IMG/VR virus record: IMGVR_UViG_3300026534_000035
Span: 16,458-80,457 of that record
DNA from: a virus
Reading direction: 5' to 3' (one strand)
Length of the DNA stretch: 64,000 nt
Shown here: piece after piece, positions 42,668 to 64,000 of the stretch
How positions within the stretch are numbered: position 1 is the stretch's first letter
Layout: the number at the start of each line of letters is the position of its first letter
The notes under the pieces: model-generated
Told to the model about the DNA's origin: nothing
Seen by the model: the letters and a program-made list of their open reading frames with translations, nothing else
Databases searched by the model: none
Position numbers and translations under genes: made by a program

Positions 42668-42925
42668 ATGTCTGGGAAAGATAAAAGTATGGACAAAATG
42701 AATAGGTTTGTTAAATCAGAAGTAACGGCTATGTTTGAACGTATTCTTGATTATGCACAAATAGCAGTTCCAACTGAAGCTGTGTATAAAGCCCTAAGAT
42801 CAAAAATTTTACGGGCGGGGAATGATTGTATAAGAAGAATACAAGCACATAATACAAAATTCTATGATGTAGAATACAAACCTGTTTCTGAGGATGTAAT
42901 AAAAGTAGATAAAGTAACTAACTAG
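42668..42925 (+). CDS. Hypothetical protein
   Basis: ORF with SD; LRSKILRAGNDCIR. Confidence 0.7.
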   Translation: MSGKDKSMDKMNRFVKSEVTAMFERILDYAQIAVPTEAVYKALRSKILRAGNDCIRRIQAHNTKFYDVEYKPVSEDVIKVDKVTN

Positions 42926-42956
42926 AAGAGGAAATGGTATAGGAGGTGTATATAAA

Positions 42957-43706: not shown

Positions 43707-44710
43707 TGGATTTATCTTTAGAGGAATTGGAAGGCTACCTGAATGTTATTTTAATAGCTCAAAAAATAATAGAAATCAGGGGGCTGGAACTGGTATTTAA
43801 GCAACCAGATGTCGCTTTGAAAATGAAAGCGGCTATGGTTTATAATAAAGCGTATAAGGAGGCCATTAATAGTGGTCTCCTTTCTCGCAAAGACTTGTCT
43901 GAATTAATTAAAAAAAGACATATAATTTCTGAAGAAGAACTTAATAGGCTTAGTAGGTTAGAGAGTAAATTAGAAGCTCAAAAAATTTTGTTGAGCAAAA
44001 CTACAAAAGTTAGAGCTAATCAGGATAGACTTAAAAAAATAATTTCGGATTTGGAATCTGAAATATTTAGTATTAAAGAAAAAGAAATGTCCAAACTTAT
44101 GCTTTCTGCGGAAACTAAAGCAGAAGAAGACAGGTATAATTTTTTATGTGCCAAAAGTGTATATCATAATGATTCTCTTTTTTGGCCATCTTATGAGATA
44201 TATAAAAAAGAAACGAATTTGTTATTAAAGAATGAAATTTTATCTGAGTTTATGGCTTTTTATAATGGTATTTCTACAGATGTTATTAGATATATTGCTA
44301 GACATAATTTATGGAGAGTGAGATATGTAACAAGTAGAAAAACTTCTGAGGCATTATTTGGTAGACCTACTTCAGAGTATACAATAGATATGCTTAATTT
44401 AGCTTTTTGGTCTAATTATTATCAACAGATTTATGATATGTTGCCAGAAGACAGGCCCCCTGAAAGTATTATAGAAGATGATGAAGCACTAGATGCTTAC
44501 ATGAAATCTTTCTATGATGAACAAGAAAAAGAAGCAATGGCAAGGAAGGCGGAACGGAAAATAGGTGGCAAACTGTCAGCGTTTGATCAAGAAGAAGTAA
44601 TAGTAACTCGATCTAATGAGTTATATGAAGATATTAAATATGATAAACCAAGAGAAGCGCAACGAATAAGGGATAAAACGGATATTAGGAAAAAGGCACG
44701 GCGTAGATAG
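43706..44710 (+). CDS. Putative tail assembly chaperone 2
   Basis: TAATG coupling; RPP..IIEDD.ALD motif; directly precedes the tape measure gene. Confidence 0.55.
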   Translation: MDLSLEELEGYLNVILIAQKIIEIRGLELVFKQPDVALKMKAAMVYNKAYKEAINSGLLSRKDLSELIKKRHIISEEELNRLSRLESKLEAQKILLSKTTKVRANQDRLKKIISDLESEIFSIKEKEMSKLMLSAETKAEEDRYNFLCAKSVYHNDSLFWPSYEIYKKETNLLLKNEILSEFMAFYNGISTDVIRYIARHNLWRVRYVTSRKTSEALFGRPTSEYTIDMLNLAFWSNYYQQIYDMLPEDRPPESIIEDDEALDAYMKSFYDEQEKEAMARKAERKIGGKLSAFDQEEVIVTRSNELYEDIKYDKPREAQRIRDKTDIRKKARRR

Positions 44711-44757
44711 GTATATATAATTATATAATATTTTATTATTAATTGGAGGAGCTTATC

Positions 44758-47700
44758 TTGGCTAATGACATTAATGTAAATTTTAATTTAAAAAACAACC
44801 CTTCTAACTTACCGGCGGCTCCTACTTTATCAGGAAACAAGCAGCTGGCTGCAACATTAGAGAAAATATTAGTTCCAGTTCTAAAAAACATTGAGCGAGG
44901 CTCATCTGATGCACTTAAACGTGCAATGATAGAGTATAGTAAATCTACGTCTCAAGGTGGGGGTTCTGCTAATTCCAAAGAATTTGAAAAAATTTTTAAT
45001 AGTAGTTTTAATAATTTTGGTAAAAGACTCGCTCGTATATTAGAACAGCTTATTTTACATCTCAATAAAGGTACTAGTCCACAACAATTTCAAACAGAAC
45101 TTAAAAAAGCTATACGTACTGAGGTAGATATAGCTTTAAATAAGTTTCAAAAGAAGGCCTCCTCTCATAATATAGGTATATCTACATCCCAGCAAACACA
45201 AGCAGCCGAAAAAATCACTGATGCATTGGTTAAAAAATACGATGCGTCATTAAGTGGGCATGTTGCGAAATTATCTGTTGCTATTAATGAACTTAAACAG
45301 CTGACAGAAAAAAGTATGCTTGCTATTAAAGAAGGAAAACAAGCGTATGAGAATAAAGATTTAAAGCATGCTGTTTCTGCTATTCAAAAAGGGATAGAGG
45401 TTTTACATCAAAAAGAACAAACACAAGCAGCTTTTAAAGAACTTAAAGAGGTTAGTAAGCAATTAGGCGAGCAGCAAAAAGATGTTGCTAAGCAGATAGC
45501 AGAAGGTATTAAAACTTTAAAGAGCACTGTAGATAGTAGAGCATATAGAGCTAAAAAAGAGATATCTAAATCTCCTGTTGAGGTTTCTACTGGAATTACT
45601 AAAGAAGTTATAACTGCCTTAAAAAAGATTCCTGGGATTTCTGAAAACAAAGAGCTCATTAAAAAAATAGAGCTTATTAACAACAATATAACAAGTATAG
45701 AAACAGCTGTTAAATCTTTTAAAGAGCTTAAAAAAGTAGTTGATCAAGCTAAAAAAACAAAATCAATAGATGTAGAAGAGTATAAAAAAATAGTACAGCT
45801 TTTTAAAGATTTAAGTACTGCTGGTGGAAAATTTAAAACACTTCCTAGACGAGATAGGGAAGAGCTTAAATCTCCAGTAGTAGAAAAAATGGTAGCTGTT
45901 GTAGCTAAGTATGATAAAAGAGCTCAAGCTCTTTTAGAATATATACATAGTATTCAAAAACCGACCGCCGAACCTTCTACAGTGTCTATAGCACCTAAAG
46001 GTATTAAGTCGATTGAGACCGCTGTCGAAAAGGGGATTGAAGAGGGGTCTAAGAAAAAAACTGCTGTTGATAAGGCAATGGCTGCTTATACAGCAAAAGA
46101 AATTAAAAATGTAGTAAAGGAATTTATTTCTGAATACAAAAAAACAATACAAGAAGCATCTTCTAAAAAAATAGATACTAAGTTTCTAGAAGCCGCATAT
46201 AAGTCAGGTAGTTTAAAAGGAGTAATTAAAAAGGCGACTGAAATTAAAGGAACAGAAAAATTAAGAGAGTCTGCTAATGTTTTATTAGGAATGGGTGACC
46301 AAAAAGACATATCTAAGGCTATTTCTGATATGTCTGATAAATTTGGAAGTATAAGTGACGGCTTAGACTCGCTTCAAGATACTTTAAAAAGAGCCACTAA
46401 ACAAGTGGAGGAGTCTGTTCCAGAGGGTTTGAAAAAGAAGGGCGAAGATGTAGCAGCCGGTTTAGAAGATTTAAAGAAAAGTATTGAAGAGAGTGTAAAA
46501 GCTAGTGATGGAGTCACAGAAGAATTAAAGAACATTAAACCGCCTACTAAGTCTACTCCGAAATATAGTTCTTCAAGAGATACTTTAAATAGAATAAGTT
46601 TACAAAAAAAACTACAACAACGACAAGTTACTGAATACCCTGAAACTTTAATTTCTCCTGATTTGGATATTAAAAAACTGTTGGGGTCTTCTTTAAAATC
46701 TAAAAATAAGTCTATATCCGAAGCCTCTAAAGAAATAGGTAAAAATGTAGAAGACTTGGCTAGTTCTTTGAGTAAATTACAAAAAGATATTGTAGACACT
46801 CTAGAAAACGGCTTACCTCGTAAAAAGAACTGGCATTGGGAAATAGTTAAAAGAGCTGGTGATGATATCTCTAAGTATTTTAAAGCCGCCGGCGGAGCAG
46901 GTGAAGCTAATGCTAAAAATGCTCGTTATTGGAAATTACAAATTGCGGATGTGTCGAAACTTAAAGAATTTTTAGAAAAAGGCTCAGACGATTTAACTGG
47001 TGTGGTTACACTAGTAAATGAAGCTAAAAGAAAATTAATTAATGATATTACTAAGTATAAATCTAATACGAATGATTTGGCTGAAGGAATAGCTGAATGG
47101 ATAAAAACTACTTCTGATAGAGAAATAAAAGAATGGGGTGATATAAAAAATTCATATGTGGCACACAGAAATAAACAGCTTAGTGTAATAAAGAAAAAAT
47201 ATAAGGGTGGCACGGTATCTAGAGCTATGATTGACGATATTAAGAAGACTTTTTCTGAGGATCTTTCTAATATCTTTCAGGATACCTATGCTACAGTGGT
47301 TGCTAATAAAGAACTCTCTTCTAAAAATTTAGTTAGGAATATTCACATCCCTGCATTACGCTTATCTAAGACTGGAACACCTGTTTTGGAAACGGCATCA
47401 GGAAGCCAACGTGCAGTAGCTGGTTTTGCCAAATTTACTACCGGTTTAGAAAAATTGTTTTCTAAAGTAGAAAAAACTTCTATACCATTAGAAGATATAG
47501 GAAAGTATAAAGAAGAAATTCAGTCTATTGGGATTAGACCTACTAGTGTTAGTGAGTTAGGAAAGGCTAATGCTGTTGCTGAAAGCATGTTTTCTGATTT
47601 AGCTAAAACTGCAAATCTTAGTGTAAGTGATATGAAGCAGCAATATAAAGAAGCTGCTATTATGAAGGGAGCGGAATTAAAGCGGCGCGGAGTTATTAAA

Positions 47701-50700
47701 GACGTACCTACCTATGTTAATAAAATTAGCGAAGCATTTGACAAATTTAAGTCTGGTCCAATTGATATTTTAATGTCTGAGATGAATAAATTAGGCGTTA
47801 GTGCTTATGATTTGGTCAAGTCTATGGATTCTATAAAATTTGAAAATGTGTATGATGTATACAAAAAGGTTTTGTCAGAACCCCTTCAAAAATTAGCAAG
47901 TCGTCCAAATAATAGTAATATCCGTAATTTTGAACAAGCTACAAGGCAGGTAGAGCAGTTGATGCCTTTAGCTCCTCAAAGTAGAGTCCGACGAGCTTAC
48001 CACCAGCAAAATGTTTTAAATTTAAGGACTTATACTTCTGATGTTTATAAGGGCTTAGGTTATTCTGAAAGGCAGCAACTTACTTCCCCTGATGCCCAAA
48101 AAAGACTGATAAAAGATTTAAACTTAAGATTTGATGAAATGTCAAAGGAAGCCAAAGTATTGAAACAGTCTGGCTTGTCTAGAACAAATGCTTTGCCGTA
48201 TAGAGTTAAGCAAATTTCTAGTTTGGGGTTGCCTGAGTCTCAGGCTGGAAGTATAGCTGACTTTACTCGCGGAAAAGTATTGTCTGAACGTGATGAGTAT
48301 GAAAAAGGAGTTAAGCATTTAAAAGTATTAGGTGGTATGGGTGTTAAGATGTACACAGAAAATCTAGCCAAGATGGCTCCTTTTGGTCAATTTCAACAAA
48401 TAGGTAGAAACATTGCTAGTACAACTAATGCTTTAACTTCTAATTTAGATAAAATAAAGAAATTACCTGGAGTAAAATTAGAAGGGGTTAGTACCGAATT
48501 TCCTACACTTAGGACTCAAAAAGAACAAGCACTTATTAGATCTGGAAGATACGGGACTCAAGGCTATGGATTTAATGTATTAACTGAACTAAGGCATAGT
48601 GCTTCCACCTTTGAAGATCAAATAGTTGTATCTGGTAAGTTGGCTAAGGCTCTTACTGCTATTGTTCGAAATATAGTTATGCCGAGTGCTAAGGGAAGAG
48701 CGTATAATAAGAGCGAGCTAGAAGAAATTAGTAAACCTATAGCCTCTGCTGTTGAGGACCTTCAGAAAAAATTAGTGGCTGATACTCCTATGAATAAAAG
48801 AATTGGTGAAGTAAGTCGTGTTTTTCAGAAAGTTCTAGGAGTAGAGCAAAAGTATAAGGGTCGCGCGGATAAAGCCCTTGTCAATGAAATAAAAGATACT
48901 CTATCAGTTGTCCGAGGAGAAGACGTAAATGTTCAAACGGCTAAATTAACTGAAGTGTTTCTTAATCACTTTGGTAGAAAGCTTACTACTAGATATGGCT
49001 CCAAAGGTGTTAGTATAGCGACTGAGGTTGGTCCTGATAAGTCGGACTACATGAAAAGTTTAAAACAAGTTTTGAAACAATATGCTAGAGAAGGCACTAA
49101 AATAAAAGTTCTGCCCGTTGATCAAGTTAAAAAAGGAGCAGGTTTAGGTGTAGCCGTTCTGCCGAAGTCTATGGGGGAACTATTAGCAGAGCTTATAGAT
49201 AAAAATAAAGATAAACTAATAGCTTCTGGTAAAAGTTCACAAGCAATTTCAGGATTAAAAACACAGTTATTAGAATCTGGTAATAAATTCATACTTGATT
49301 TATTTAAAGATGCGTCAAAAGGATTAGTTACTGAAAATGAAGCTTTAAAACAAGCTTCTTTATACAAAAAAATAAATGATATACTAAGATCAGTATATGC
49401 TGATTTTAAAGGGTTGCCGAGCGGAATTGAGGGTATAAAAAAAGTAAAAGAATTATACACTTCTAAAACAAAAGGTAAAGGAGAGTTGTATAAGGAAGTC
49501 CCAATCGATGTTAGGATTAGCTCTAAAGGTATAGGTAAGCGTGGCTTACAGCCCGAAGTCTTAGAGGCAGTAATGAATAATATTGTAGGTAGTGCTAAAG
49601 GGCCTACAACAATAAAATCTGATTTTGAGAAAAATAAACTATATCAAAAACTATTGGGTGGTCCTAAGACTCCTGGTCGTTTAAGTGTAATTAGTGAAGC
49701 ATTAGGATATAAGTCAACTGTTCCTGGAACATTAGAACAAAAACTTAAGGATCCTACAAGAATAAAAAAATTAGAAAAACAACTTTTACAAAAATTTGGT
49801 AAAGACAAACCTGATTTATCAAAATATGCCGCAGAATTAGAGGCACTTTCTAATTATTATGTGGATGTAATTGATGAATTGGGAAAACGTAGGAAAAGTT
49901 TAGTTGGTAAAAAGTTTTTGGAAATTGTTGAAGAGCCGGGAGAAACTCAGAAATGGACTAAGCAACAAGTAGTCAAAGCACAAAAAGGACTAAAATTAAA
50001 TATTCAAGCTTATACTGCCTATGCTGATATCTTTGGTAAGAATTCGGCCATAATGAAGGAGATTTCTGGTAAACAAAGTTTGCAAGCAAAAGAAGCTATG
50101 GAATATTTGAAAGCTTTAGAGGCCAGTCCTTATAGTTCCGCAAATAATTCTGATTTAGTGAAAAAATTAAAAGAGGGTTCTAAAAAGGTTAAATTAGGTA
50201 ATATATCAACTTTTGATTTGTCTACTGGTATGTTTAAACCAGGGTCTAATAGAGACTTAACTGGTTCAGTGTTTGATGTTAAAAAATTTCCTACTGCTTT
50301 TACTACTCAAATTCCTAAGACTACTGGTAAACCAGGAGAAACCGAACCTTTTTATGTTCCCGGCCCCCTGGCGCGAGGAAATTATCCCGAACCATTAATT
50401 GCGGGAGAACACGGGGTTACTACAATTGGCAGAAGATTACAGCATGTGATAAACATGGCAAAAGCTGCTGAAGATTTAATTAAATTGCCAAAAGAATTAG
50501 ACAAACAAATTTCAGTGCTAGAAGATGAGTTAGCTAAGCTACTTAAATCTGGTGCTAGTACAAAAGAAATAGACATTGTCACTAAGCATTTAGAGTCAGC
50601 TAAAGCTGAAAAAGCTAATTTACTTTCTGGAGCAAATGCTTTGGATGCTAAAAAAATTAATCAAATTGCTCCTTTAATTATTAAAAAAGTAACCAAAGCT

Positions 50701-53700
50701 TCACCAGAAGAAAAGGAACATTTTAGAAAAGTAATATCTGAATTTGTTGGTCAAGAAGTAGGTACTACTGGTTCACTTGGCGGTTTAGGTCCTGCTTTAG
50801 ATACTCTAGTTGGTCCAATGGCTGATTTAAATAAAGGGGTGTCATTGAAACAGGCCGTTAATATGGCTAATGAAGTAGTTAAAATTTTAAGTAAAAATGT
50901 TGGTCAACGAAGTAAAGAAGAAAAAGATTTATTGGATAGATTTAGAAATCTAAAAGATGTTGCTACTAATACCGCATTTAAGGGGCAAGATTTAACGTCT
51001 GATGATGTTTTAAAAAACGTAGCTACTCAGTATGCTAAGTGGAGCAAAAAAAGAGCTTCTGCTCCGACTTATTTGAGTCAGATTCGCAGTAATAAAACGG
51101 CTGTGTTGGACTTAGTTAAAAAGTTTGGAATTAAAAAAGATTTAGGGATTGATTTAGAGTCAGAGTATAAGAAGCGACTTCAATTACTTGAGAAAGCTAA
51201 AATTGATTATTATAAAGAATTAGCTGAAAAAGCTGTTGGTAAAAAAGGCGCTGTAGCAGAAGTTTTATTTACAAGGCATGTTCCTGCACAATTAGGAAAG
51301 GCCGTTACTGCAGTAGTTGATAAAACCAAGGAACTTAATAGTTTTAAAAGTTTTTTGTCTAAGTTTTATGAAAAAAGTGAAAAACAGTTGGGGCCTGATT
51401 TAGCTAAAGAGTTGGGAACAGAAGAAGAATATTCTAAGTTATCAAAAGAAATAGGCGACATATCAACTAAACATAGTGAAATTATTCATAAATATGTAAA
51501 GCAGAATATTCCCGTATTGAAGCAGACTGAAATAGGTATTCCTGCTTCGGCAGCAAAGAATATTCCTGTGGAATTTACTAAGAAATATAGAATAGAAAAA
51601 GAAGGCTTATTGAGCGAAGTACCTAAAGAAGCTCAAAAACCAACAAAGGGTAGTTTATTTGATTTACTGTCCTATAAAAGAAAGCTGGAAACCTCTAAAC
51701 GATTAACTAAAGACGTTGTTACTGGTGGTCCTGGTAAAGATGTTTCTCAGGATATAAAGAAATACATAGATAATGAGCTTTTACCTTATATTGAAAGTGT
51801 AAGATTTCCTTTTACTGGAACTTCGAGTGTACAGCCATATAAAGCTAAGCTACTTCCTTCTATAAAAGGCGAGGCTGGAGTAGATTTAACTAAGCATATT
51901 TTAGCTGTTCCAGGGATTCCTGATTTCGGCAAAGGTGGTATAGAAGAGTTTGATAAAATAATTCAACATCTTAAGGATAAGATAGAAAAAGCAAGTGCTC
52001 TTAGAGAACAAGCGTATAATGCTGGGGATGTTGGAAAAGCCCAAAAACTTACTGCCGTAATAGAGGAACTAACTAAAGCTATTTCTGCAGTTATTCCTAA
52101 ATATACAGCCGTGCAACAAAAGCTGGATTTTGATGGCGACCAAATAGAAATCCATAGTGCTGTAACTGAAGCTGCTAGAAAAGATATTAAAAAGCATTTT
52201 GAAAGTTTGAGCAAAGATGTAGATAGTACAGCAGCCAAGTTTAGAGATGCCTTTACCTATGACCCCACAAAAAGTGATGCTCCCGGAGGTAAATACACTT
52301 TAGCTGAAATGGCGGCCGCTTTTGAAAAGAAATTTCCTGCTAAAAAAGGTTTTGAGTTTTTAAAGAAGCCCTTTTTGACGTCAGATTTAAAATATATTTC
52401 CCCTCAAAAACAACTATCTATTTTGTCAGAGCAGTTACAAGGAAATGTAAAAACTGTTTTGGAAAATGTTATAGAGAAAAGCGTGATAGGTGTTAATGAG
52501 AAAGGTATTTCAAATAAAGAACTTATTAAAGAGGCTATCAAGGCTGTACCAGAATCTAAGGATACACTATCTTATTCAAAAGCTTTATTGAATGCTATCA
52601 AGAAGTTAGACTCAGACATTAATAAAAGTTCTGGTAAACCTAGTAATTTAACTAAGATGGTCACTGGTGGTGTTGCAAATAGCCTATATGAAACTAAATT
52701 TAAGAACGCTATTGAAGCGCAATTATTTAAAATTCATACGGGGCCTGAAACTGAAGCTATTACTAGAGTTCAGAAATTTGCCAGCGCCAGAACTTCCTTC
52801 CCTAAAGGTCCTTTAACAAAAGTTGGGGTAGATTTTAAGAAAGAGTACATTACTCAAATGAATGAAATGTTAAGGTTCGCTTTACAGAAAGGAATGGATG
52901 TAAAGCATGCTGGAGCAGGTACTGTTTCTGGAGATATAGTTAAAGGGCTTACTAGTGGTAAAGAGGGTTTAAAAACTCTTTTGGAGAAAATAGGACTAGT
53001 TGGTAATAAGCCTTCTGAAGATTTTAAAGGGCTAAAAGAGTTTGCGGATATAAATGCAAAAGCTATAAGAAATCAAGTAGGTAAATTGACCAATGAAGAA
53101 GTTTTAAAGCAGGCTCAAGAATTGGTGCCGGAAAAAGACTTGTCGAATAAAAGCAGGGAAACATTAACTCAAATTATTGTAAACAAATTGGGGTTTAAAG
53201 GGTTTTTGGAAGACCTTCAAAAGGGAATTCATCAAGAGGTTTATAAAGCCCTGCTTGAAGAAGCTAAAAAAATGCCAGCCTACCAAAGAAAGGGCAAGCC
53301 TGTAGAGCAATATGCTACGGAAAAACTTAATCAATTAACTACAGATAAACGTGCAGATTTACTTAATAAATATTTTATACAAACTAAATTGCCGTTGTAC
53401 GGAACTCGCACATCCACTGCTACAGGTGTTGGTCAGTTACGAGAGATAACCCGTAAATATGGCAAAGAGGCTATAAGTGTTCCTAATTTAGAACTACCTA
53501 AAAATGTAAAAAATGATTACGTGGAGAAATTTAAGATAGCTGCAGCCACTGCTCAAAATGTGCGTGAAAAAATAGGACAGTTTGGTTCCGAAGGCATTTC
53601 CGGTCCTTTTTCTGATATGGTAAGCACCAGTATAGATGCTATCTATAATGAACAACGCAAAGTAAATAAAATTGCACAGAGTATACAAGGAACACCATAT

Positions 53701-56700: not shown

Positions 56701-59700
56701 ATGTCTGCAGCTATAGGCAGAGCTGCTAGGTGGGGAGCAGCATCTACTATTGTTTATGGTGGCGCTAGGAAGTTATTAGATACCATTAAATTAGTGGCTG
56801 ATGTTGAGACTGAGATGTCTAAGTTGAGAATGGTAATGAACTCTGTTACTACTGATTTTGGTAGAATGGAGAAATCAGCTATAGAGATGGCAAAAGCATA
56901 TGGTGTGCCTATAAAAAATGTATTAGAAGGTATGCGTATTTTTGCTCAACAGGGTTTGAAACAGTCTGAGGTTATAGATAAAACACGTACAGCAACTCTG
57001 GCAGTAAATGTTACTACATTAAATGCTAAAGATGCTACAGAAGCTCTTACTGCGGCTACTAAAGCTTATGGGAAGGAAGGGCAAAGTGCTCTTAGGTTTT
57101 TGGATTCATGGTCAGAAGTAGAGGCTCGTCACGCTATTACAGCAGCTGATATGGCAGACGCCATTAAAAAATCGGCTTCAGCCGCAAAAAATGCCGGCTT
57201 TACTTTTGATCAACTAAATGGAATTGTAGCAGCTATTGGATCTACTACACGACAAACAGGTAAAGAGATTGGAACTTCTACTAGATTTATTTTTAGACGG
57301 CTGACTTCTGATAGAGGCCCAAAAGCGTTGGCCAAAATAGGAATTCCAACTGTTACTGGTACAGGGGAACTTAGAAAAGGATTTGATGTCTTAGATGATT
57401 TAGCTAAAAAATGGGACACTTTAACCCATGCCCAGAAAATGAATATTGCTCAGGCTGTTGGTGGCACCCGACAATATAACTCGGTTTTGGTTTTAATGGA
57501 TCATTGGGATGAGGCATTACAAGCTATAAAGCATAGTACAGATTCAAAGGGTTCAGCAGAAAGACGAAATGCTGAAATAATGAAAACCTATACTAAGCAG
57601 CTTGAACAAATGAAACAAACTGCTTCTGAGACAGCCATTCAATTTGGAAAGTTATTTTTACCCTTAGCTAAAACAAGTGTTAAGGGAATAAAAATGTTTT
57701 TGGAAGTTATTAATTCTATTCCAACAAGTATTAAATTTGCTATGGGTGCCGCGGTTGCTTTTATGGCTTATTTAGCAAAAGGGCACACACTTATTCAGAA
57801 TTTAGTAGACTCTTTTAGATCAGGCGAAGTAGCTCTGTCTGGGTTTTTTAAAGCTATGAAAACTGGTTTTAAAGTAGGGATGTTTGAAGTATTTGGTTTC
57901 GGTAAGAAAAATGATCCATTATTGAAAGGATTACACACTATAGGTGATACTATTCAAGGTGCTTTTGGTAAAAAACAAGGGATGACTTTGAATAATTTTC
58001 AATCATCTCTTGGTAAACTTGGATATGTTGCTACAGAAGTATCAAAAGCATTCAATAAAATGGTTATAGGTAACACTTTAAGCGGAGCTGCTACAGCTAC
58101 TGGTTTGGCTGGTAAAGGGTTTGAGAAAACAGGTAAATTTGTAAGAAATACTTTTGGTGTAGAGGGTTTTACTAATACAATCAATGCTGCCCGCGCGGGG
58201 AAAGATATTCTAACATCTAAAGGGGCTTTTAAGGCAATTAGCGAAGGCGGACTTTCAGGATTAAAAGATATTTTTGGTGGAGCTATGGGTATTGGTGCGG
58301 AATTTGTTGGAATGTCATCTACTCTAGTTGGTAAGTTTTTGGATTATTTGAGTAAGAAATTAGGTGTTGCTGCTGGTGCATTCATAAAGAAATTTGCTGC
58401 TGAGAATACAACCTTTATGAAGGCCGTAACTCCTATGGTTGCTACAGTAATGGCTATGTATCCTGCTTTGAAAGGAATTGCTCATTACTGGAGAAAAATG
58501 ACAATGTCTGCTCAGGATTACGAGAAGGCATTGTATGCATCTATAAGAACTAATTCTGAGCAATTAGATGCTCTAAAGAAAATTAGTTACGAATATAAAT
58601 CAATTGATAAATTGGTACATAAAGCTAATTTAGCACGTAAGCCACAAGTTAAAGCTGAACAAATGCGACTTGGTACTTATGTTGATCCATTAGTAACTAT
58701 GGGAAAGGTTCAGGTTAGGTTGGTAGATGTTAATAATAGACTAGCAAAAGCTAATAGTAGTTTAATAGTGGGATATGACCAATTAGGAAATGCAGTTTTT
58801 AAAGCTAGAGGAAATGTTGAAGACTATATAAAAACACTTCAAAAAGTGAGGACTAAGAAAGGTTTAGAAACCTCTATGGAAGTGTTAAGTAAGTATGTCC
58901 ATGATTTGTCCCAAACAGGAGGGTTTGAAACAGCTAAAAAAGTTATTAAGGATTTACTTGAGGAAGTTCCTGTTGTTGGAGAGAAACTGGCTAAACCAAT
59001 AAAACTGTCTCCCATTAAAGTGGTTGAATTGGCAGTTAAAAAGCTTAATAGACTAGTAGCAATTAAAAATAAATATCCATTATCTAATGCAGTTGACTCT
59101 GATATAAAACGTTTACAAGAAAAATTGATAGCTGCTAAAAAAGCTTTAAAAACCACTTATGAAGGGATGCAGAATGTATTTAAAAATAGATTGGATTTTA
59201 CTGGATTAAGTAGAAAAGAAATAGAAAGTATACTTAGTTCTAAAGTATTTAAAGATGCTTACAAAGTAATGATTAAATTAGATCCTCAATATCAGATAAA
59301 AGGTATTAAGGGTCAAATAACGGCTGGGGATCTTCAAGGGTCAGAAATTCTAAAACAAATTTTTCCTAAAATTTCTGGAATGATAGGGCCACGTAAAAAT
59401 CTTACGGAGGCTTATTTAGCTCAAGCAGGAATTAGTGCTAGACGGCCTAATAAACAAGGAAAGATTATGGCTCAGTCTGGAGATATTGTTACTTTAACTG
59501 GTCCTGGGGAACGTATGTTAAGTGCTGCGGGTGGTCAAGCAGTGCTAGAATTTAAGAAAACTGCTGAAGGTATTGGCAGGTGGTTGTTGACCTATGTAGA
59601 TAAGAAAACAGGAGAAATTAAAAGTAAGCCTTTTAATGCTATGACACAAATAGCTAATGTTGAGAAAATTTTTCCTACATTTAAAGCACAACGAGACTTG

Positions 59701-62700
59701 AGAGAAAGAATAGATGCTCTTTCCGAAATAGTGAGTGGTGCGGCCGCGGGCCTTAAAGGTGTAGGAGCTAAACCTTTTAAAAAGAACCTTTCTTTGGGAG
59801 AAAGATTCTTTAGTGGTATACCAACATCTACTTTGATACAAGCTAACAAAGGTTTTGAGCTTAAAACCACTCCAAAGGGTATGCAACCATTTTATGGTAA
59901 TATTGAATTTCAGAAAAAATGGCCAGAAGAGTTTAGAAAATATTACCAAAAACCACTGGAAGAGTATAATAAACAACTTGAGACTTTAAAAGGTCGTAAA
60001 CTTACTGGGTTAGGTCCTAAAGCTACGGCTGTTAGCAAGGAGACCGCTGCTGAATTAGCTAAGAAGCGAGCACTCATTGAAAACAATCAAGTGGTTTTTC
60101 AATATAGGGCTGCTTTAATGGATCTAAATAAGACTTTAGAAGAAAACATTAGAACTGTTGAAGCCAATGTAGCTATTGAGAAGGATAGACAAAGATTAGA
60201 AAAAGAAACAAGTGGTTACATGAAAGGTGTTGCAAAAGGATTTGATGCTATTAACTTAGGTATTCAAGATTTTAATAAACTTACTGCATTACAAAGAACT
60301 TTGCGTACTAGTTCTACCGCACGAGAAGCGGCAGGAAATATTCTTACTGCTCAAACACGTCGTTCGGGTGCTATGGAAAACATTAGCTCAATAGAGAAAT
60401 CTATACAAGCTATAAAAGGGATTACTGCACCAGCAAAAGGGTTTGGTACCATTATGTCTGCTAAACAAAGAGCGCAGTATGTAGAGCTGGTTTCTGCAGG
60501 TGCCAACAAAGATACTGCGATGCTAGCTGTTAGCAGTAAAAACATAGAAGTTAATACGAAAGATACAGTAACAGAGCTTAAAAAGGCAGGAGAGTTTTTA
60601 AGAGGGATTTATGAAAGAACAGTTGAACCAAGGTATGGAGTTGATGCTGCTCTTGGTGAGCTTAAAGACCTTCTTTCAAAACCTTTAAAAATGACCTTTT
60701 TAAAAAGAGACTTTCTAACTCCTCATTTTTATGATAAGCCAGGCCTAATTGTTAGAGCCATGAATAAAATCTTTGGGTATGAGGATAGGATGAGAAGTAA
60801 AGGTAATTTGAAAGGAGTGGCCTATGCAGAAAAACAATTAGACCGTCTGGCCAAAGAATTAGTCTATTATACTGGTAGTATAGAAAAGGCCAGACAGACG
60901 GTAGAAAAGTATAGTGGCTATAGTGGCGGCAAAGTAAAAGCTAATGAAATTGAACAACGACTTTATAAAGGTTTAAATTCAGAACAGTTTGTACAGGATT
61001 TAAGTAGCGCTGTTAAAGAAAGTAATAAGAAGGCTTGGTTTTCTTTTACTAAGAAAACTCCTGTTAAAAAAAGTGATGCTTATGAAACGTATAAAAAGTT
61101 AGAAGAAGAAGGTAAAAAACCTTGGCATGATACAGCTAAGAATACATTGAAGACTTATGCTGTTTTAGGAGCCTATAGTGCATTTAGAAAAGGGGCTTAT
61201 AATAAAACTTATAAAGTTTTAAAAGAGCAAGCAGATTATATCCACCAACAACTTAAAATTGGAAAACTTACCAATGCCAAAAAGATAGCTCTAAGTAAAA
61301 AACTTATCTTTTTGAATGAGGGAATGAAAAAAGAAACCTCCAAAATTCAGCTAGCTAAGTTGATCCAAACAGGGGCTATGGTTAGTGGCGGTGGCATGGC
61401 AGTTGCTAGGGTATTGGGACTCAGTAGTACTGCTCAAAAAGTAGTGGGCGGCGGCGCCGGCGGAGTTTATGCAGCTATAAAAGCATACAAATTACTGGGT
61501 AAAAAAATTCCTGTGTCTTTGGAGAAGGCGTTTAATGCAGTTGAGGAAAAATTACAAGAGAGACAAAAAACTGCTGGTAAAACAGGTGGTTGGGTGATTA
61601 AAAAAGTATTGGATTTTAAGATAGCTTCTAAACTTAATGAGTTAAATAAAGAGGCTCAAAAATTTGCTGAAACTCAAACAGGTGTAAAAACAGAACAGTT
61701 AGCTAGTTATACCAAAGAAGCCCGTGCTAGAATAGATAAGATGAGCAAGCCAGAAAGGGCAAGAGAAGTAGAGAAATTAAGACGAGAAGCATCTGCTGCA
61801 TCAGGAAGAAGATCTGTTATTAGTGATGCTATTTTGGCTAGTATAGTAGGGACTGCTGTAGGCTATTTAGCTAAACAAGGTTCTTTAAGAACACAAGTGG
61901 CTGATAGAACAAAATTAGCAGAGAAGCAATCACGCGCAATTGATGAGTTTAGGAAGAAGTATCCTAAAGAGTTTGAGAAAGTTCTTGAAAGAAGTATAAA
62001 AAAGAGTTTACCGCCTGAAGTAGTTCAGACTCGTAAAAAAACGGAAGAAGCTAAGGCTAAATTTAGTCTAGTTAATCCTGCTTTGTCTCCAGAAGATGAA
62101 AGAAAACGAATTTTAAAGAAGGCTCAAGAAGATAAAAAAATTAATGAACTTGAGGTTAAAAGATTAAATAAAATAACTTCAACTAATAAAAAGATACTTA
62201 ATGATGAAGTTGGTACTTCTAAAATTCGTATAGCTAAAGAACAAACATATGATAATATTAGAAGAAGAAATTTAGAACGTACCGTAAAAGCATTTAGCAG
62301 ACCTGAGGCTGGGCCTGGTTTGCGTGGTTTTATTGGACCTGCTCCAGTAATTAGATCAGACAAAGAGTTAAGCACCCAACAAAGACTTTATAAAGAGGCG
62401 CCTTCTAATATTAAGGATGCTATAAATAAAACTACATTATTAAATTCAACTTTGGGCGACCTTAGCGATGCTTATGCTAAGCAAATGGGGGATATTCAAG
62501 GTAATATTAAAACTATTCATACTTTAATTGAGGAAAGAAAACGGTATCAAGATGAACTTAAGAAAACCCCCTCTACAGACACAGAGAAAAGAACACAACT
62601 TTCTGATAGTATTACTAGAGATAATGAAGCAATTAAAACTTTAACAAAAAGAATTCAAGAACAAAGAGATGTAGCCATAAAATACAGAGAAGAATTACTA

Positions 62701-64000
62701 AAGGGAACTACTGTTTTAGATAAAGCTACTAAATTGTTTGCTAAACTAGTTGATGTATCACGAGTATTTGATAATTTGAGGAATTCTATTGAAAAGCTTG
62801 CTGTAAGTGAGGCTGTTCAGCAGTTACCAGGAGTTAAAAAATTCACTGAAGGGATGAATAAAACTCTTGGCGGTAGTGGCCCTTTTGCGCCTACATTGGT
62901 AACTCCAGAAATTAGGCGCCGCGCTGAAGCTGTAGGTATGCCTATTAAAGGCATGGAAGTAGGCCCGTTTGATTTGAAAAAGATTAATATTATGCACGAT
63001 ATTATGAGTGGTGGGCTACAGGGGCAGTCATTATCTAATGCTTTTCAACGTTTGGCGGATTTGCCCGCCGAAAAACAGGCATATAAGTATCAACAGGAAC
63101 AGCTTAAATACAATCAGCAGGTTAAAGCGCAAGGCTCTGTAATACAGCAAACCGAGGCTGGTTTAACGGAGCTTATTAAATCAAATAAGTATACTCCAGA
63201 ACAAAGTACTTTATTAAAGAGCACCAGGGATATTGCTGATAAAATAATGGCTAGTTTGGCCACACCTAAGAATATAAATTCGGAAATAAAAAAATATGAA
63301 GGGGTTTCTTATGCTAAAGACTATGTAGAACAACTTAAAAAACTAAGAGCAGCTGGAGCAACTCAAGTTCGTAGTATTGATCCTACCTTACTAAAGAATT
63401 TAACTGATGCATTTAAGAATATACAATTGAAGTTTGGTACAGGTTTGGATAATTTAATAAAAGATTTGAATAAAGAACAGAATTTTTCGCCGATTACTAA
63501 ACGACAAGATACTCAAACCGACATTTTGAAAAATATTGAGACTAGCTTGTCTGGTGGCAAAGAAACAGCTATTGGGAGAAAAGATGAAAAATCACTTTGG
63601 GATAAGATAAAGAGCTTCTTTAGTCCCCCTACAATTGTAAAAAAGCTTCCCCGTAGAGCTACTGGTGGAGATGTTTTTCATGGTCAAGTTCATGGAATTG
63701 GTAGTGCTACAAGTGATTCTAATTTAGTTAGAGTAAGTAGAGGAGAGTACGTTACCAAAACAGATAGTGCACGGAAAGTGGGCTATGATGTGCTTAACTA
63801 TATTAATAATAAAGCAGAGTTGCCTTTGGAAGCAGCTAAGCAAAGAGTTCAGAAAGCTGGGTTTGCTCTTACAAATTCCAATAGATATCAGCACGGTGGT
63901 GTTATAGATTGGATGTCGCAAGAATATCACAAGGGTGTTGATACACTCAAAGCTATTCCAAGCAAAATGAAAAAGTTTTTCATAGGCGAGAATGATTTTA
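44758..64000 (+). CDS. Giant (>6,414 aa, 3'-truncated) tape measure polyprotein: two-barrel RNA polymerase, PD-(D/E)XK nuclease and TP901-type tape-measure core
   Basis: SD GGAGG and TTG start. The track reports no closed ORF in this frame, and the stretches translated by hand are stop-free. Motifs TFEDQIVVS, GRKLTTRYGSKGV, LDFDGDQIEIH, GHID..IDVKT..QL..Y; tape-measure core at 56701-57700; ATGG..G.G..TSDS...S.GEYV near 63660. Confidence 0.93.
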   Translation, partial: MANDINVNFNLKNNPSNLPAAPTLSGNKQLAATLEKILVPVLKNIERGSSDALKRAMIEYSKSTSQGGGSANSKEFEKIFNSSFNNFGKRLARILEQLILHLNKGTSPQQFQTELKKAIRTEVDIALNKFQKKASSHNIGISTSQQTQAAEKITDALVKKYDASLSGHVAKLSVAINELKQLTEKSMLAIKEGKQAYENKDLKHAVSAIQKGIEVLHQKEQTQAAFKELKEVSKQLGEQQKDVAKQIAEGIKTLKSTVDSRAYRAKKEISKSPVEVSTGITKEVITALKKIPGISENKELIKKIELINNNITSIETAVKSFKELKKVVDQAKKTKSIDVEEYKKIVQLFKDLSTAGGKFKTLPRRDREELKSPVVEKMVAVVAKYDKRAQALLEYIHSIQKPTAEPSTVSIAPKGIKSIETAVEKGIEEGSKKKTAVDKAMAAYTAKEIKNVVKEFISEYKKTIQEASSKKIDTKFLEAAYKSGSLKGVIKKATEIKGTEKLRESANVLLGMGDQKDISKAISDMSDKFGSISDGLDSLQDTLKRATKQVEESVPEGLKKKGEDVAAGLEDLKKSIEESVKASDGVTEELKNIKPPTKSTPKYSSSRDTLNRISLQKKLQQRQVTEYPETLISPDLDIKKLLGSSLKSKNKSISEASKEIGKNVEDLASSLSKLQKDIVDTLENGLPRKKNWHWEIVKRAGDDISKYFKAAGGAGEANAKNARYWKLQIADVSKLKEFLEKGSDDLTGVVTLVNEAKRKLINDITKYKSNTNDLAEGIAEWIKTTSDREIKEWGDIKNSYVAHRNKQLSVIKKKYKGGTVSRAMIDDIKKTFSEDLSNIFQDTYATVVANKELSSKNLVRNIHIPALRLSKTGTPVLETASGSQRAVAGFAKFTTGLEKLFSKVEKTSIPLEDIGKYKEEIQSIGIRPTSVSELGKANAVAESMFSDLAKTANLSVSDMKQQYKEAAIMKGAELKRRGVIKDVPTYVNKISEAFDKFKSGPIDILMSEMNKLGVSAYDLVKSMDSIKFENVYDVYKKVLSEPLQKLASRPNNSNIRNFEQATRQVEQLMPLAPQSRVRRAYHQQNVLNLRTYTSDVYKGLGYSERQQLTSPDAQKRLIKDLNLRFDEMSKEAKVLKQSGLSRTNALPYRVKQISSLGLPESQAGSIADFTRGKVLSERDEYEKGVKHLKVLGGMGVKMYTENLAKMAPFGQFQQIGRNIASTTNALTSNLDKIKKLPGVKLEGVSTEFPTLRTQKEQALIRSGRYGTQGYGFNVLTELRHSASTFEDQIVVSGKLAKALTAIVRNIVMPSAKGRAYNKSELEEISKPIASAVEDLQKKLVADTPMNKRIGEVSRVFQKVLGVEQKYKGRADKALVNEIKDTLSVVRGEDVNVQTAKLTEVFLNHFGRKLTTRYGSKGVSIATEVGPDKSDYMKSLKQVLKQYAREGTKIKVLPVDQVKKGAGLGVAVLPKSMGELLAELIDKNKDKLIASGKSSQAISGLKTQLLESGNKFILDLFKDASKGLVTENEALKQASLYKKINDILRSVYADFKGLPSGIEGIKKVKELYTSKTKGKGELYKEVPIDVRISSKGIGKRGLQPEVLEAVMNNIVGSAKGPTTIKSDFEKNKLYQKLLGGPKTPGRLSVISEALGYKSTVPGTLEQKLKDPTRIKKLEKQLLQKFGKDKPDLSKYAAELEALSNYYVDVIDELGKRRKSLVGKKFLEIVEEPGETQKWTKQQVVKAQKGLKLNIQAYTAYADIFGKNSAIMKEISGKQSLQAKEAMEYLKALEASPYSSANNSDLVKKLKEGSKKVKLGNISTFDLSTGMFKPGSNRDLTGSVFDVKKFPTAFTTQIPKTTGKPGETEPFYVPGPLARGNYPEPLIAGEHGVTTIGRRLQHVINMAKAAEDLIKLPKELDKQISVLEDELAKLLKSGASTKEIDIVTKHLESAKAEKANLLSGANALDAKKINQIAPLIIKKVTKASPEEKEHFRKVISEFVGQEVGTTGSLGGLGPALDTLVGPMADLNKGVSLKQAVNMANEVVKILSKNVGQRSKEEKDLLDRFRNLKDVATNTAFKGQDLTSDDVLKNVATQYAKWSKKRASAPTYLSQIRSNKTAVLDLVKKFGIKKDLGIDLESEYKKRLQLLEKAKIDYYKELAEKAVGKKGAVAEVLFTRHVPAQLGKAVTAVVDKTKELNSFKSFLSKFYEKSEKQLGPDLAKELGTEEEYSKLSKEIGDISTKHSEIIHKYVKQNIPVLKQTEIGIPASAAKNIPVEFTKKYRIEKEGLLSEVPKEAQKPTKGSLFDLLSYKRKLETSKRLTKDVVTGGPGKDVSQDIKKYIDNELLPYIESVRFPFTGTSSVQPYKAKLLPSIKGEAGVDLTKHILAVPGIPDFGKGGIEEFDKIIQHLKDKIEKASALREQAYNAGDVGKAQKLTAVIEELTKAISAVIPKYTAVQQKLDFDGDQIEIHSAVTEAARKDIKKHFESLSKDVDSTAAKFRDAFTYDPTKSDAPGGKYTLAEMAAAFEKKFPAKKGFEFLKKPFLTSDLKYISPQKQLSILSEQLQGNVKTVLENVIEKSVIGVNEKGISNKELIKEAIKAVPESKDTLSYSKALLNAIKKLDSDINKSSGKPSNLTKMVTGGVANSLYETKFKNAIEAQLFKIHTGPETEAITRVQKFASARTSFPKGPLTKVGVDFKKEYITQMNEMLRFALQKGMDVKHAGAGTVSGDIVKGLTSGKEGLKTLLEKIGLVGNKPSEDFKGLKEFADINAKAIRNQVGKLTNEEVLKQAQELVPEKDLSNKSRETLTQIIVNKLGFKGFLEDLQKGIHQEVYKALLEEAKKMPAYQRKGKPVEQYATEKLNQLTTDKRADLLNKYFIQTKLPLYGTRTSTATGVGQLREITRKYGKEAISVPNLELPKNVKNDYVEKFKIAAATAQNVREKIGQFGSEGISGPFSDMVSTSIDAIYNEQRKVNKIAQSIQGTPYEKVSKKVEDLADRIVNEKGIPEFAKKLFYGKGNLSPKFLKNMESQVEDYTRLAGLPNLEVGEKQRVRDVSISKFSKILRKQVPELDENQIKDYSERLSRKAIALYKLDRAMTAFVEKAKSGAYITDLFPSSEDRKLAAKTGISSKNLIRDNISKQKEALKNVQASYSSAEESAEKIREGKRRAGVFGGGGNFGEGVPGGTTGMPSGGGVVPVYIVGVAENVGNIIFTRGGGQQVTPPSGLAGQYAEPKLYNVQRLRDLANKASGNINIMKGSDFGSIYRASAFHGGGPYLGEGKGNVSDFEKSARVNRLQVKAMVKTMLGAQAPATSPKGQLLESSAILGTGLHSKIEKYMKDLYGDKAEFEKMIVLQNKEIGTITGHIDAVIKEGDKYKKVIDVKTVSASRVKDIGAAIKRAKSSKYSDIKNLIKDYESRRKLEEVASQLNIYLKALGTDLEAEAQFYNRFKPEAGPTIVKFKFDPARYKRDIANVKRAREAIVASGAKFAKTASLEEVKSAKPQELTKKEEEYLINAGKSYFIDSVRKLAEKKHGKAGSAKFSSVEDIKKRISIEKTRLGYHSMATGPSIEEILNPPPVIPGTGAKVEFQNLRNLHAITKAFQQQQGFEVSKSGMRGLPTEIQDMLRSVQASGPKGPEFTDLINKLKDAGVMKHKDVFKSWRLYKIAVGDFFVKEMERAQKDIKYFKEANDYTSALNAAGKFKRNLSQMQGYIRQNIGKPTDIYTHNKRYLYPGLAKAAGVYVNPSDVAKNVTAPIGDDAKLMKIFNTVTKDLSNQKEMSTPIEKARDVLRSLGNLDENVVKVLTDAEKLKRMGTEVIQAWDVNKISENLTKLRTALEGFAKQNLTEDFEAPQRKNLELTIKLLKQVEDKFALIGHQRKRDFSGNWGDMGLIPVPKFETPDVQRAMHETNLRRVRQYFNVPEAKGGPKIGQYFTYHEKISDATGNVITNKAFNFKKQGEALDRLGRKYSVVSESMVDLIKRGQDYNRTMSAAIGRAARWGAASTIVYGGARKLLDTIKLVADVETEMSKLRMVMNSVTTDFGRMEKSAIEMAKAYGVPIKNVLEGMRIFAQQGLKQSEVIDKTRTATLAVNVTTLNAKDATEALTAATKAYGKEGQSALRFLDSWSEVEARHAITAADMADAIKKSASAAKNAGFTFDQLNGIVAAIGSTTRQTGKEIGTSTRFIFRRLTSDRGPKALAKIGIPTVTGTGELRKGFDVLDDLAKKWDTLTHAQKMNIAQAVGGTRQYNSVLVLMDHWDEALQAIKHSTDSKGSAERRNAEIMKTYTKQLEQMKQTASETAIQFGKLFLPLAKTSVKGIKMFLEVINSIPTSIKFAMGAAVAFMAYLAKGHTLIQNLVDSFRSGEVALSGFFKAMKTGFKVGMFEVFGFGKKNDPLLKGLHTIGDTIQGAFGKKQGMTLNNFQSSLGKLGYVATEVSKAFNKMVIGNTLSGAATATGLAGKGFEKTGKFVRNTFGVEGFTNTINAARAGKDILTSKGAFKAISEGGLSGLKDIFGGAMGIGAEFVGMSSTLVGKFLDYLSKKLGVAAGAFIKKFAAENTTFMKAVTPMVATVMAMYPALKGIAHYWRKMTMSAQDYEKALYASIRTNSEQLDALKKISYEYKSIDKLVHKANLARKPQVKAEQMRLGTYVDPLVTMGKVQVRLVDVNNRLAKANSSLIVGYDQLGNAVFKARGNVEDYIKTLQKVRTKKGLETSMEVLSKYVHDLSQTGGFETAKKVIKDLLEEVPVVGEKLAKPIKLSPIKVVELAVKKLNRLVAIKNKYPLSNAVDSDIKRLQEKLIAAKKALKTTYEGMQNVFKNRLDFTGLSRKEIESILSSKVFKDAYKVMIKLDPQYQIKGIKGQITAGDLQGSEILKQIFPKISGMIGPRKNLTEAYLAQAGISARRPNKQGKIMAQSGDIVTLTGPGERMLSAAGGQAVLEFKKTAEGIGRWLLTYVDKKTGEIKSKPFNAMTQIANVEKIFPTFKAQRDLRERIDALSEIVSGAAAGLKGVGAKPFKKNLSLGERFFSGIPTSTLIQANKGFELKTTPKGMQPFYGNIEFQKKWPEEFRKYYQKPLEEYNKQLETLKGRKLTGLGPKATAVSKETAAELAKKRALIENNQVVFQYRAALMDLNKTLEENIRTVEANVAIEKDRQRLEKETSGYMKGVAKGFDAINLGIQDFNKLTALQRTLRTSSTAREAAGNILTAQTRRSGAMENISSIEKSIQAIKGITAPAKGFGTIMSAKQRAQYVELVSAGANKDTAMLAVSSKNIEVNTKDTVTELKKAGEFLRGIYERTVEPRYGVDAALGELKDLLSKPLKMTFLKRDFLTPHFYDKPGLIVRAMNKIFGYEDRMRSKGNLKGVAYAEKQLDRLAKELVYYTGSIEKARQTVEKYSGYSGGKVKANEIEQRLYKGLNSEQFVQDLSSAVKESNKKAWFSFTKKTPVKKSDAYETYKKLEEEGKKPWHDTAKNTLKTYAVLGAYSAFRKGAYNKTYKVLKEQADYIHQQLKIGKLTNAKKIALSKKLIFLNEGMKKETSKIQLAKLIQTGAMVSGGGMAVARVLGLSSTAQKVVGGGAGGVYAAIKAYKLLGKKIPVSLEKAFNAVEEKLQERQKTAGKTGGWVIKKVLDFKIASKLNELNKEAQKFAETQTGVKTEQLASYTKEARARIDKMSKPERAREVEKLRREASAASGRRSVISDAILASIVGTAVGYLAKQGSLRTQVADRTKLAEKQSRAIDEFRKKYPKEFEKVLERSIKKSLPPEVVQTRKKTEEAKAKFSLVNPALSPEDERKRILKKAQEDKKINELEVKRLNKITSTNKKILNDEVGTSKIRIAKEQTYDNIRRRNLERTVKAFSRPEAGPGLRGFIGPAPVIRSDKELSTQQRLYKEAPSNIKDAINKTTLLNSTLGDLSDAYAKQMGDIQGNIKTIHTLIEERKRYQDELKKTPSTDTEKRTQLSDSITRDNEAIKTLTKRIQEQRDVAIKYREELLKGTTVLDKATKLFAKLVDVSRVFDNLRNSIEKLAVSEAVQQLPGVKKFTEGMNKTLGGSGPFAPTLVTPEIRRRAEAVGMPIKGMEVGPFDLKKINIMHDIMSGGLQGQSLSNAFQRLADLPAEKQAYKYQQEQLKYNQQVKAQGSVIQQTEAGLTELIKSNKYTPEQSTLLKSTRDIADKIMASLATPKNINSEIKKYEGVSYAKDYVEQLKKLRAAGATQVRSIDPTLLKNLTDAFKNIQLKFGTGLDNLIKDLNKEQNFSPITKRQDTQTDILKNIETSLSGGKETAIGRKDEKSLWDKIKSFFSPPTIVKKLPRRATGGDVFHGQVHGIGSATSDSNLVRVSRGEYVTKTDSARKVGYDVLNYINNKAELPLEAAKQRVQKAGFALTNSNRYQHGGVIDWMSQEYHKGVDTLKAIPSKMKKFFIGENDF
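47341..52920 (+). other. Single-chain beta/beta'-like RNA polymerase domain within the giant ORF (about residues 860-2720)
   Basis: Collinear RpoB-like then RpoC-like motifs; DFDGD at 52126-52140. Confidence 0.88.
54532..55180 (+). other. PD-(D/E)XK (RecB/Cas4-like) nuclease domain within the giant ORF
   Basis: RASA, GTGLHSKIE, E, GHIDA, IDVKT and SQLNIY. Confidence 0.8.
56701..57750 (+). other. TP901-family tape measure core domain
   Basis: FAQQG; AAKNAGFTFDQLNGIVAAIGSTTRQTGKEIGTSTRFIFRRL; WDTLT..QK..IAQAVGG.RQYN. Confidence 0.88.

Follow-up and report, generated by a model that had tools for sequence, protein, structure and literature searches.

A giant gene at the end of a viral contig

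The 64,000-nucleotide (nt) stretch of DNA analyzed here, referred to as the window, comprises positions 16,458 to 80,457 of the IMG/VR virus record IMGVR_UViG_3300026534_000035 and ends in a giant gene whose product combines a phage tape-measure protein with a region that is almost certainly homologous to RNA polymerase (RNAP). An earlier note on this DNA had described a frame of about 19 kb running out of the window, and this frame is present: the open reading frame (ORF) listing gives a single plus-strand frame, 44743..63999, of 6,419 codons with no stop before the window end. The chance probability of such a frame at this base composition is ~1e-235. The likely start, in agreement with the earlier note, is the TTG at 44758, 7 nt downstream of a GGAGGAG Shine-Dalgarno sequence, from which >6,414 amino acids (aa) are visible. 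Residues are numbered from 44743, giving values 5 higher than numbering from the TTG.

The genome record consists of one contig of 80,457 bp, which stops at the window end (64,000) and is estimated by CheckV to be ~29% complete. The C terminus of the protein was not recovered, as a scan of metagenome contigs for an exact match to the last 40 bases of the window found none. Read as a circle, the contig would add 100 aa before a stop, but it has no terminal repeat and this extension is hence uninterpretable. A search of sequencing runs returned one full match only, to a hydrothermal-vent metagenome that is perhaps the source of the DNA, and there was no RNA run among the matches.

Domains and conserved motifs of the giant protein

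The rear part of the protein is recognizable as a tape measure. PF10145 (PhageMin_Tail, the TP901-type tape-measure core) matches with 91.4 bits against a cut-off of 33.2 and is the only Pfam match in the protein, and 10 PHROG tape-measure families match a wider region with a best E of 2e-67. The earlier note had placed the TP901-type core at about residue 3980, close to the PF10145 match (Table 1); judged by conservation within the family, the core starts near aa 3650. Between this core and the polymerase-like module lies a nuclease-type domain with the family-conserved pattern G..H, E, D.K, Q..Y. It is labeled PD-(D/E)XK / Cas4-like in a protein atlas with a score of 0.96, while Pfam gives no match. 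The conserved pattern and the atlas label both bear out the remark in the earlier note that a nuclease is present.

The front half contains blocks resembling motifs of the RNAP beta subunit followed by blocks resembling motifs of beta'. All 13 motifs quoted in the earlier note lie where that note placed them, and islands of family conservation coincide with its beta and then beta' motifs. On the beta side, the islands are PA..G...T..G (aa ~870-900), FEDQ, GRK..TR.G.KGV and PI..RIS..G..KRGL..E..E; on the beta' side, they are GK.G...F.R.VP...KA..A..D, R.PFTG, QKLDFDGD....H and NE..R..QKG.DVKHAG. The segment GRKLTTRYGSKGV corresponds to the barrel segment with two active-site lysines, and its residues R, K, R, G, K and G do not vary within the family. 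Beyond the beta' barrel, long helices are accompanied by the invariant blocks QL.K..TG...E...R and NE..R..QKG.DVKHAG. It is plausible that QKGMDVKHAG, which fits the pattern M-x3-H-x-G, is the trigger loop, and that VRFP is the equivalent of NRAP.

Table 1. Features of the giant tape-measure gene, with window coordinates and residue numbers counted from 44743.
Feature	Coordinates	Strand	Basis or remark
Giant tape-measure gene	44758..63999	+	TTG start and GGAGGAG; 3' end lost at contig end
N-terminal region, ~860 aa	44758..47331	+	Low family conservation, no Pfam or PHROG match
Beta-like half, aa ~864-1850	47332..50292	+	AlphaFold2 model, fold search, HHalign
FEDQ, aa 1290-1293	48610..48621	+	Equivalent to RpoB NFEDS 812-815; E and D invariant
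GRKLTTRYGSKGV, aa 1411-1423	48973..49011	+	Equivalent to RpoB GDKMAGRHGNKGV 1063-1075
PIDVRISSKGIGKRGLQPEVLE, aa 1587-1608	49501..49566	+	Equivalent to a 22-residue RpoB segment
Beta'-like half, aa 1850 to ~2966	50290..53640	+	Contains large helical insertions
GKKG...F.RHVP...GKAVTAVVD, aa 2166-2193	51238..51321	+	RpoC equivalent at entry into beta' barrel
VRFPFTG, aa 2353-2359	51799..51819	+	Plausible equivalent of beta' NRAPTLH and free-RNAP RFPCLG; R, P, F, G invariant
LDFDGDQIEIH, aa 2461-2471	52123..52155	+	Mg-binding aspartate triad; 76/77 relatives
QKGMDVKHAG, aa 2715-2724	52885..52914	+	Invariant block, low-confidence loop between helices
PD-(D/E)XK (RecB/Cas4-like) nuclease-type domain, aa ~3326-3469	54718..55149	+	Family-conserved pattern, protein atlas label
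Tape-measure region, aa ~3764-5403	56032..60951	+	PHROG tape-measure families
PF10145 PhageMin_Tail, TP901-type core, aa 4044-4241	56872..57465	+	Pfam
Sole strongly hydrophobic segment, aa 5692-5710	61816..61872	+	

A family of giant tape-measure proteins

The DFDGD motif, whose chance expectation in the giant protein is 0.0015, lies in a region with 77 relatives. All of these are giant proteins of 3,500-8,000 aa, the full-length ones mostly 6,900-8,000 aa, and nearly all carry PF10145. An exhaustive search of 1.84 billion representative proteins yielded 98 matches only, all of them giants or fragments of giants; about 100 metagenomic proteins, mostly of 6,500-8,000 aa, thus have the region. 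In 50,697 deposited phage genomes, tblastn detected nothing similar to the module. The pattern KLD[FY]DGDx[IL]x[IVL]H is present in 76 of the 77 relatives at an overall identity of 26-43%. Among the invariant columns are E/D and R-K-R-G-K-G of the beta type, R-P, D-D-G-D and H of the beta' type, and about 70 more. The retention of the aspartate triad, the beta lysines and arginines and these ~70 further columns among such divergent sequences indicates selection on an active site.

A single unbroken frame covers both halves of the module in 43 of 44 IMG/VR loci, and in 77 or more metagenomic proteins the polymerase likewise continues into the tape-measure core. The exception is the closest relative (L001, 57% identical over 4,650 aa), in which the giant gene is divided into four ORFs by in-frame TAG codons at L001:8519-8521 and L001:9536-9538, which fall inside conserved sequence, and by a frameshift at an A7 run at L001:17077-17089. 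We rejected the interpretation of L001 as a split gene, as homology continues in a single frame across the breaks, which could be due to TAG suppression or recoding, programmed frameshifting, or sequencing errors. An in-frame stop between the polymerase and the tape-measure core was looked for and found neither here nor in ~43 related loci. The unbroken loci, together with the homology in L001, thus indicate that no stop parts polymerase from tape measure in this family.

The related records represent giant phages with genomes of 228-269 kb, of which one has a completeness rating of 100%, and each encodes a single giant tape measure (7,488-7,722 aa). In record G004 (268,764 bp), this protein is complete at 7,674 aa. 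Some members carry further domains: a divergent branch (P0061, P0064, P0065, P0067, P0068, P0070 and P0076) also has PF00929, a DnaQ/RNase T-type exonuclease domain, and P0007 carries PF14449, suggesting that the enzyme cargo differs between branches.

A free single-chain polymerase links the module to cellular RNAPs

Three of five large related records encode a separate protein of ~1,090-1,180 aa (for example at L129:4335-7592) with the beta barrel family PF00562 at aa ~300-470 and the beta' barrel family PF00623 at aa ~720-830. Judged by these domains, it is a single-chain beta-beta' RNAP. The family of this free enzyme has at least 361 proteins. Two of them lie on contigs of 307,814 and 311,571 bp, and giant tape-measure contigs of identical sizes exist. 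When compared with the PDB, the free-family profile (A6) matched bacterial RNAP beta subunits only, with a best E of 4e-5; tblastn of the free RNAP against the 50,697 deposited phage genomes gave no match.

Profile comparison connects the module to this enzyme. With HHalign, the beta-like half matched profile A6 over 392 columns with a probability of 98.6% and E = 5.4e-16. The beta'-like half gave four collinear matches to the same profile, the best with P = 1.4e-4, in which RFPFTG...LDFDGD is paired with RFPCLG...LDFDGD. The chain of matches from the module to the free phage RNAP and from there to cellular RNAP closes the homology by statistics and not by eye. At the level of sequence, then, the link of the module to curated RNAPs is transitive, passing through the free phage RNAP family. 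Within the whole genome, PF00623 (RNA_pol_Rpb1_2) has one sub-threshold match (13.3 bits against a cut-off of 25.3), and this match falls on the DFDGD block at the corresponding model positions; PF00562 has no match to the module.

In the 228-kb relative, the free RNAP gene has as its neighbor a superfamily 2 (SF2) helicase gene (ResIII + Helicase_C; L129:8439-10877) that is split by a LAGLIDADG domain, suggesting an intein or homing endonuclease. After the helicase gene comes a gene for a phiEco32-like COOH-NH2 ligase (L129:10942-12045).

Both halves resemble RNAP large subunits in predicted structure

Each half of the module was modeled separately with AlphaFold2 without templates, and the models were searched (VIA) against 48,161 representative PDB chains. 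The beta'-like model (aa 1850-3000) had a predicted local distance difference test (pLDDT) score of 73.7 and a predicted template modeling (pTM) score of 0.62. Its top 8 matches among the 48,161 chains were all RNAP largest subunits, led by RNA polymerase II (Pol II) Rpb1 (Z 11.9, 421 residues aligned) and archaeal Rpo1 (Z 11.7), with Pol I, vaccinia, Pol IV, African swine fever virus (ASFV) and Pol V among the further top matches and Mycobacterium tuberculosis beta' at rank 10 (Z 10.0). A designed isolated double-psi beta-barrel (DPBB; 7dww) aligned over 86 of 86 residues with Z 9.5 and a root-mean-square deviation of 2.0 A, on a stretch ending in DFDGD. Pieces of the AR9 and phiKZ polymerases were also matched, as was gp96 of the Thermus phage P23-45 (Z 7.9).

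The beta-like model (aa 840-1850) had a pLDDT of 68.3, and its top 9 matches among the same chains were all RNAP second-largest subunits. Pol I A135 and the Xanthomonas beta subunit were best (Z 9.9, 306-320 residues aligned), followed by plastid, Pol IV, phiKZ, Pol III, ASFV, AR9 and vaccinia subunits. The Z scores were 8.3-9.9, falling to 6.3 at rank 9, and the first unrelated chain had 5.9. The structural alignments run from aa ~864, the position of the first motif in the earlier note, to near aa ~2966. Those to Rpb1 and beta' continue to model residue ~1113, beyond the barrel, where a bridge helix and trigger loop would be expected. Co-folding of the two barrel segments gave a score of 0.01, which provides no verdict and is uninformative either way. 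Of the pair of double-psi barrels expected for a two-barrel enzyme, the beta' barrel aligns to known DPBBs, whereas the beta barrel itself is of low pLDDT.

Gene neighborhood

The giant gene closes a block of virion genes, a long same-strand run that includes terminase, portal and fiber-like genes upstream. Nearly all ORFs in the window (1-64000) are on the plus strand, its GC skew is steadily positive, and ARAGORN detected no tRNA or tmRNA genes in it. The genes directly upstream of the giant gene have no match to a known family. Of 10 ORFs of at least 125 aa scanned against PHROG in the ~11 kb upstream (33563-44710), 9 had no match at E <= 0.01 and the ORF at 33563-34606 had weak tail-fiber matches only; when 7 ORFs between 35968 and 44710 were compared with Pfam, the sole match was a weak PKD at 35968-37743. 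The tail module of the lineage is thus essentially uncharted. The terminase is only ~28% identical to terminases of Bacillus siphophages. The tail-sheath family PF04984 was absent from the matches in five related records, which fits, as weak support, a long non-contractile tail.

A very AT-rich spacer of 47 nt (tatatataattatataatattttattattaa...; 44711-44757) lies immediately 5' of the ribosome-binding site of the giant gene and could be a promoter. No motif like it recurs elsewhere on the contig, and no 11-mer is found in more than 2 of the 22 intergenic regions of the 80-kb contig.

Comparison with known polymerases and tape measures

A tape-measure-fused virion RNAP was reported in 2024 for one small group of Thermus phages, P23-45, P74-26, G20c and TSP4 (PMC10770324; PDB 8H2M). 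The precedent invoked in the earlier note is real: gp96 of P23-45 transcribes pre-early genes, including the gene of its free paralogue gp64, and has been proposed to act at the pore formed by the tape measure during DNA entry (PMC10770324). In the literature searched, tape-measure-RNAP fusions are described for the P23-45 group only, and no paper on the present family was found. As in gp96, a two-barrel RNAP with a DFDGD motif lies N-terminal to the tape-measure part within one giant protein, and, as with gp64, related phages of the present family encode a free paralogous RNAP.

The differences from gp96 are considerable. The fold overlap is limited to one barrel, with the DFDGD barrel of the module superposing on that of gp96 over 100 residues. 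The sequence link between module and gp96 is not significant (P = 0.03-0.07), and HHalign of the module against gp96 and gp64 gave, as with RpoB/RpoC, short motif-level matches only (P = 0.004-0.2 across all these comparisons). The gp96 polymerase part comprises ~1,200-1,540 aa from residue 1, whereas the module spans ~2,100 aa behind an N-terminal region of ~860 aa. Unlike gp96, the module can be aligned with beta and beta' subunits of the cellular type over 300-420 residues. The giant protein has a tape-measure backbone of the PF10145 family, which is missing from gp96, where Peptidase_M23 is present; this difference upholds the remark in the earlier note about a distinct lineage. A PD-(D/E)XK nuclease domain is added here, and the phages are uncultured and 228-269 kb in size, compared to the 84-kb Thermus phages of the P23-45 type. 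Taken together, these comparisons lend no support to placing the module in the gp96 family. The lack of a significant link, the one-barrel overlap, the different Pfam backbone and the fact that the nearest relative is the family's own free RNAP suggest a separate duplication-and-fusion event, apart from the Thermus phage case. At the same time, the free paralogue family weakly matches the barrel of gp96 (P = 2.4e-5), and the two may thus share a deep common origin.

The closest detectable relative of the module is the free phage RNAP of ~1,090 aa, which has the same beta-then-beta' order in one chain. Unlike the module, this enzyme stands alone, is half the size, lacks the helical insertions and is recognized by Pfam. 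Cellular RpoB/RpoC and Rpb2/Rpb1 show the hallmark motifs in the same order and provide the best fold match for each half; unlike cellular RNAP, the module consists of one chain, lacks alpha and omega partners, has ~1,000 aa of extra helical inserts and is embedded in a tape-measure protein. The concept of a particle-carried polymerase for host-independent early transcription is shared with phiKZ and AR9, the crAss-like phage gp66 and the N4 virion RNAP, and beta/beta' pieces of the non-virion RNAPs of phiKZ and AR9 are among the fold matches of the module. However, these enzymes, which are multi-subunit (phiKZ/AR9), similar to YonO and RNA-dependent RNAP (crAss) or T7-like (N4), are packaged in the capsid, and none is part of a tape measure. 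The giant protein shares its core with TP901-1-type tape measures (PF10145) but has 7-10 times their length and contains enzymatic modules in front of the ruler.

Discussion

We are highly confident that an RNAP-homologous module lies inside this tape-measure protein. In this family, the module is fused to the tape measure in one frame, is homologous to RNAP, shares its fold and retains the residues of its active site. The earlier note had claimed a single-chain two-barrel RNAP in a tape measure, and this claim stands on four independent tests, namely the conservation islands, the fold matches, the HHalign result (E = 5e-16) and the lack of an intervening stop. We propose that the front half (aa ~864-2966) would function as a single-chain two-barrel DNA-dependent RNAP, its beta-like part preceding its beta'-like part and its catalytic residue set intact, with a PD-(D/E)XK nuclease domain and then a TP901-type ruler behind it. 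By analogy with P23-45 gp96, we infer that the tail incorporates the protein and ejects it into the host on infection, where the polymerase module would be active and would make the first phage transcripts from the entering DNA with no host RNAP required. The nuclease would travel along with the polymerase, and in related phages the free paralogous single-chain RNAP would probably take over later. This full functional reading, in which an ejected tape-measure RNAP transcribes the first phage genes, is in our judgment probable.

Several results weigh against this reading. In the first 3,000 aa, neither Pfam nor PHROGs gave a match above thresholds, and phmmer of aa 1-3000 against PDB sequences found nothing relevant. 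Searches of PDB sequences with family profiles of the two halves (A2 and A3; hmmsearch) returned coiled-coil noise and no RNAP. When HHalign was run directly against RpoB and RpoC from E. coli and other proteobacterial sequences, the hallmark motifs were the single best local matches, yet these were marginal: P = 0.004 for NADFDGDQMAVH, P = 0.04 for GYNFEDSILISERV and P = 0.17-0.19 for GDKMAGRHGNKGV, compared to a best P of 0.14 in swapped controls (beta-like versus RpoC, beta'-like versus RpoB). Sub-optimal matches were partly collinear. Of the comparison with RpoB/RpoC and the P23-45 protein that the earlier note had called for, the direct part is thus marginal, whereas the route through the free phage RNAP is highly significant. 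Foldseek of the beta' model against the PDB gave nothing at E <= 0.001, with RNAP largest subunits scattered among the weak rows, and the beta barrel region was modeled partly at pLDDT <50. The module is ~2,100 aa long, including ~1,000 aa of helical insertions, and lies behind ~860 aa of poorly conserved sequence. Finally, the contig, ~29% of the genome, contains neither a free RNAP gene nor visible early genes, and the free RNAP was undetected in two of the five large related records, one of 234 kb and 89% complete (G002) and one of 175 kb and 66% complete (G005). The free enzyme may be confined to some members, or its gene may lie in the missing parts of these two genomes.

Transcription-driven genome entry is known for T7 and N4, and an active polymerase in the tail might have a main job other than gene expression, either as a motor that pulls the long genome in by transcription or as a source of replication primers. 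The same structural and sequence evidence supports such a role, the related genomes are long (228-269 kb), and the proposal of Chaban et al. couples transcription with DNA translocation via the tape-measure pore. However, the best fold matches are DNA-dependent RNAPs and not PolD or the RNA-dependent QDE-1, and a motor or primer function is compatible with early transcription, not exclusive of it. We consider it unlikely that either is the main job.

It is less likely still that the giant protein is a polyprotein from which the polymerase is cleaved off to act in the producing cell, as a late-gene RNAP or an assembly factor, instead of being delivered by the virion. Large phage structural proteins are commonly processed, and the module is located between other domains and not at the N terminus. 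Yet the fusion to the tape measure is retained without exception in ~43 loci, related phages already own a free paralogue for intracellular use, and the one such polymerase that has been studied belongs to the virion (PMC10770324).

The large helical insertions, the low-confidence beta barrel and an RNAP similarity below HMMER detection would also be expected of a dead polymerase relic that now serves a very long tape measure as a structural element or spacer, but the invariance of the aspartate triad, the beta lysines and arginines and ~70 columns at 26-43% identity makes this reading very improbable. That the fusion is an artefact, with a chimeric assembly or a missed stop joining two genes, has a negligible chance of being correct, since the four ORFs of L001, which might suggest it, are separated only by two TAG codons and an A7 frameshift with homology in one frame, and >70 independent contigs of different sources have one unbroken frame.

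With an early-transcribing tail polymerase as the preferred reading, a broader picture can be drawn, which to us seems about as apt to prove right as wrong. These phages would constitute an undescribed lineage of uncultured siphovirus-like giant phages (~230-330 kb) whose tape measure of 7,000-8,000 aa is a multi-enzyme ejection polyprotein, with a cellular-type single-chain RNAP and a PD-(D/E)XK nuclease and, in some, a DnaQ-type exonuclease. The free RNAP of the lineage would have been duplicated to give rise to the fusion, in an event separate from the Thermus case, and the fused and free enzymes between them would allow transcription without any host RNAP. The solution would be the same as that of the Thermus group, but with a different tape-measure backbone and a polymerase far nearer to the cellular beta/beta' architecture. 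Its presence in a widespread group of environmental giant phages points to a general, possibly convergent route for enzyme delivery through a long tail, and raises the structural problem of how a tail tube would accommodate a polymerase of ~2,100 residues or let it pass. The pairing of a tape-measure module with a free enzyme may provide a new case in which to follow how two-barrel RNAPs diverge and become smaller, and the family supplies many sequences for expression and structural work that would not require phage culture.

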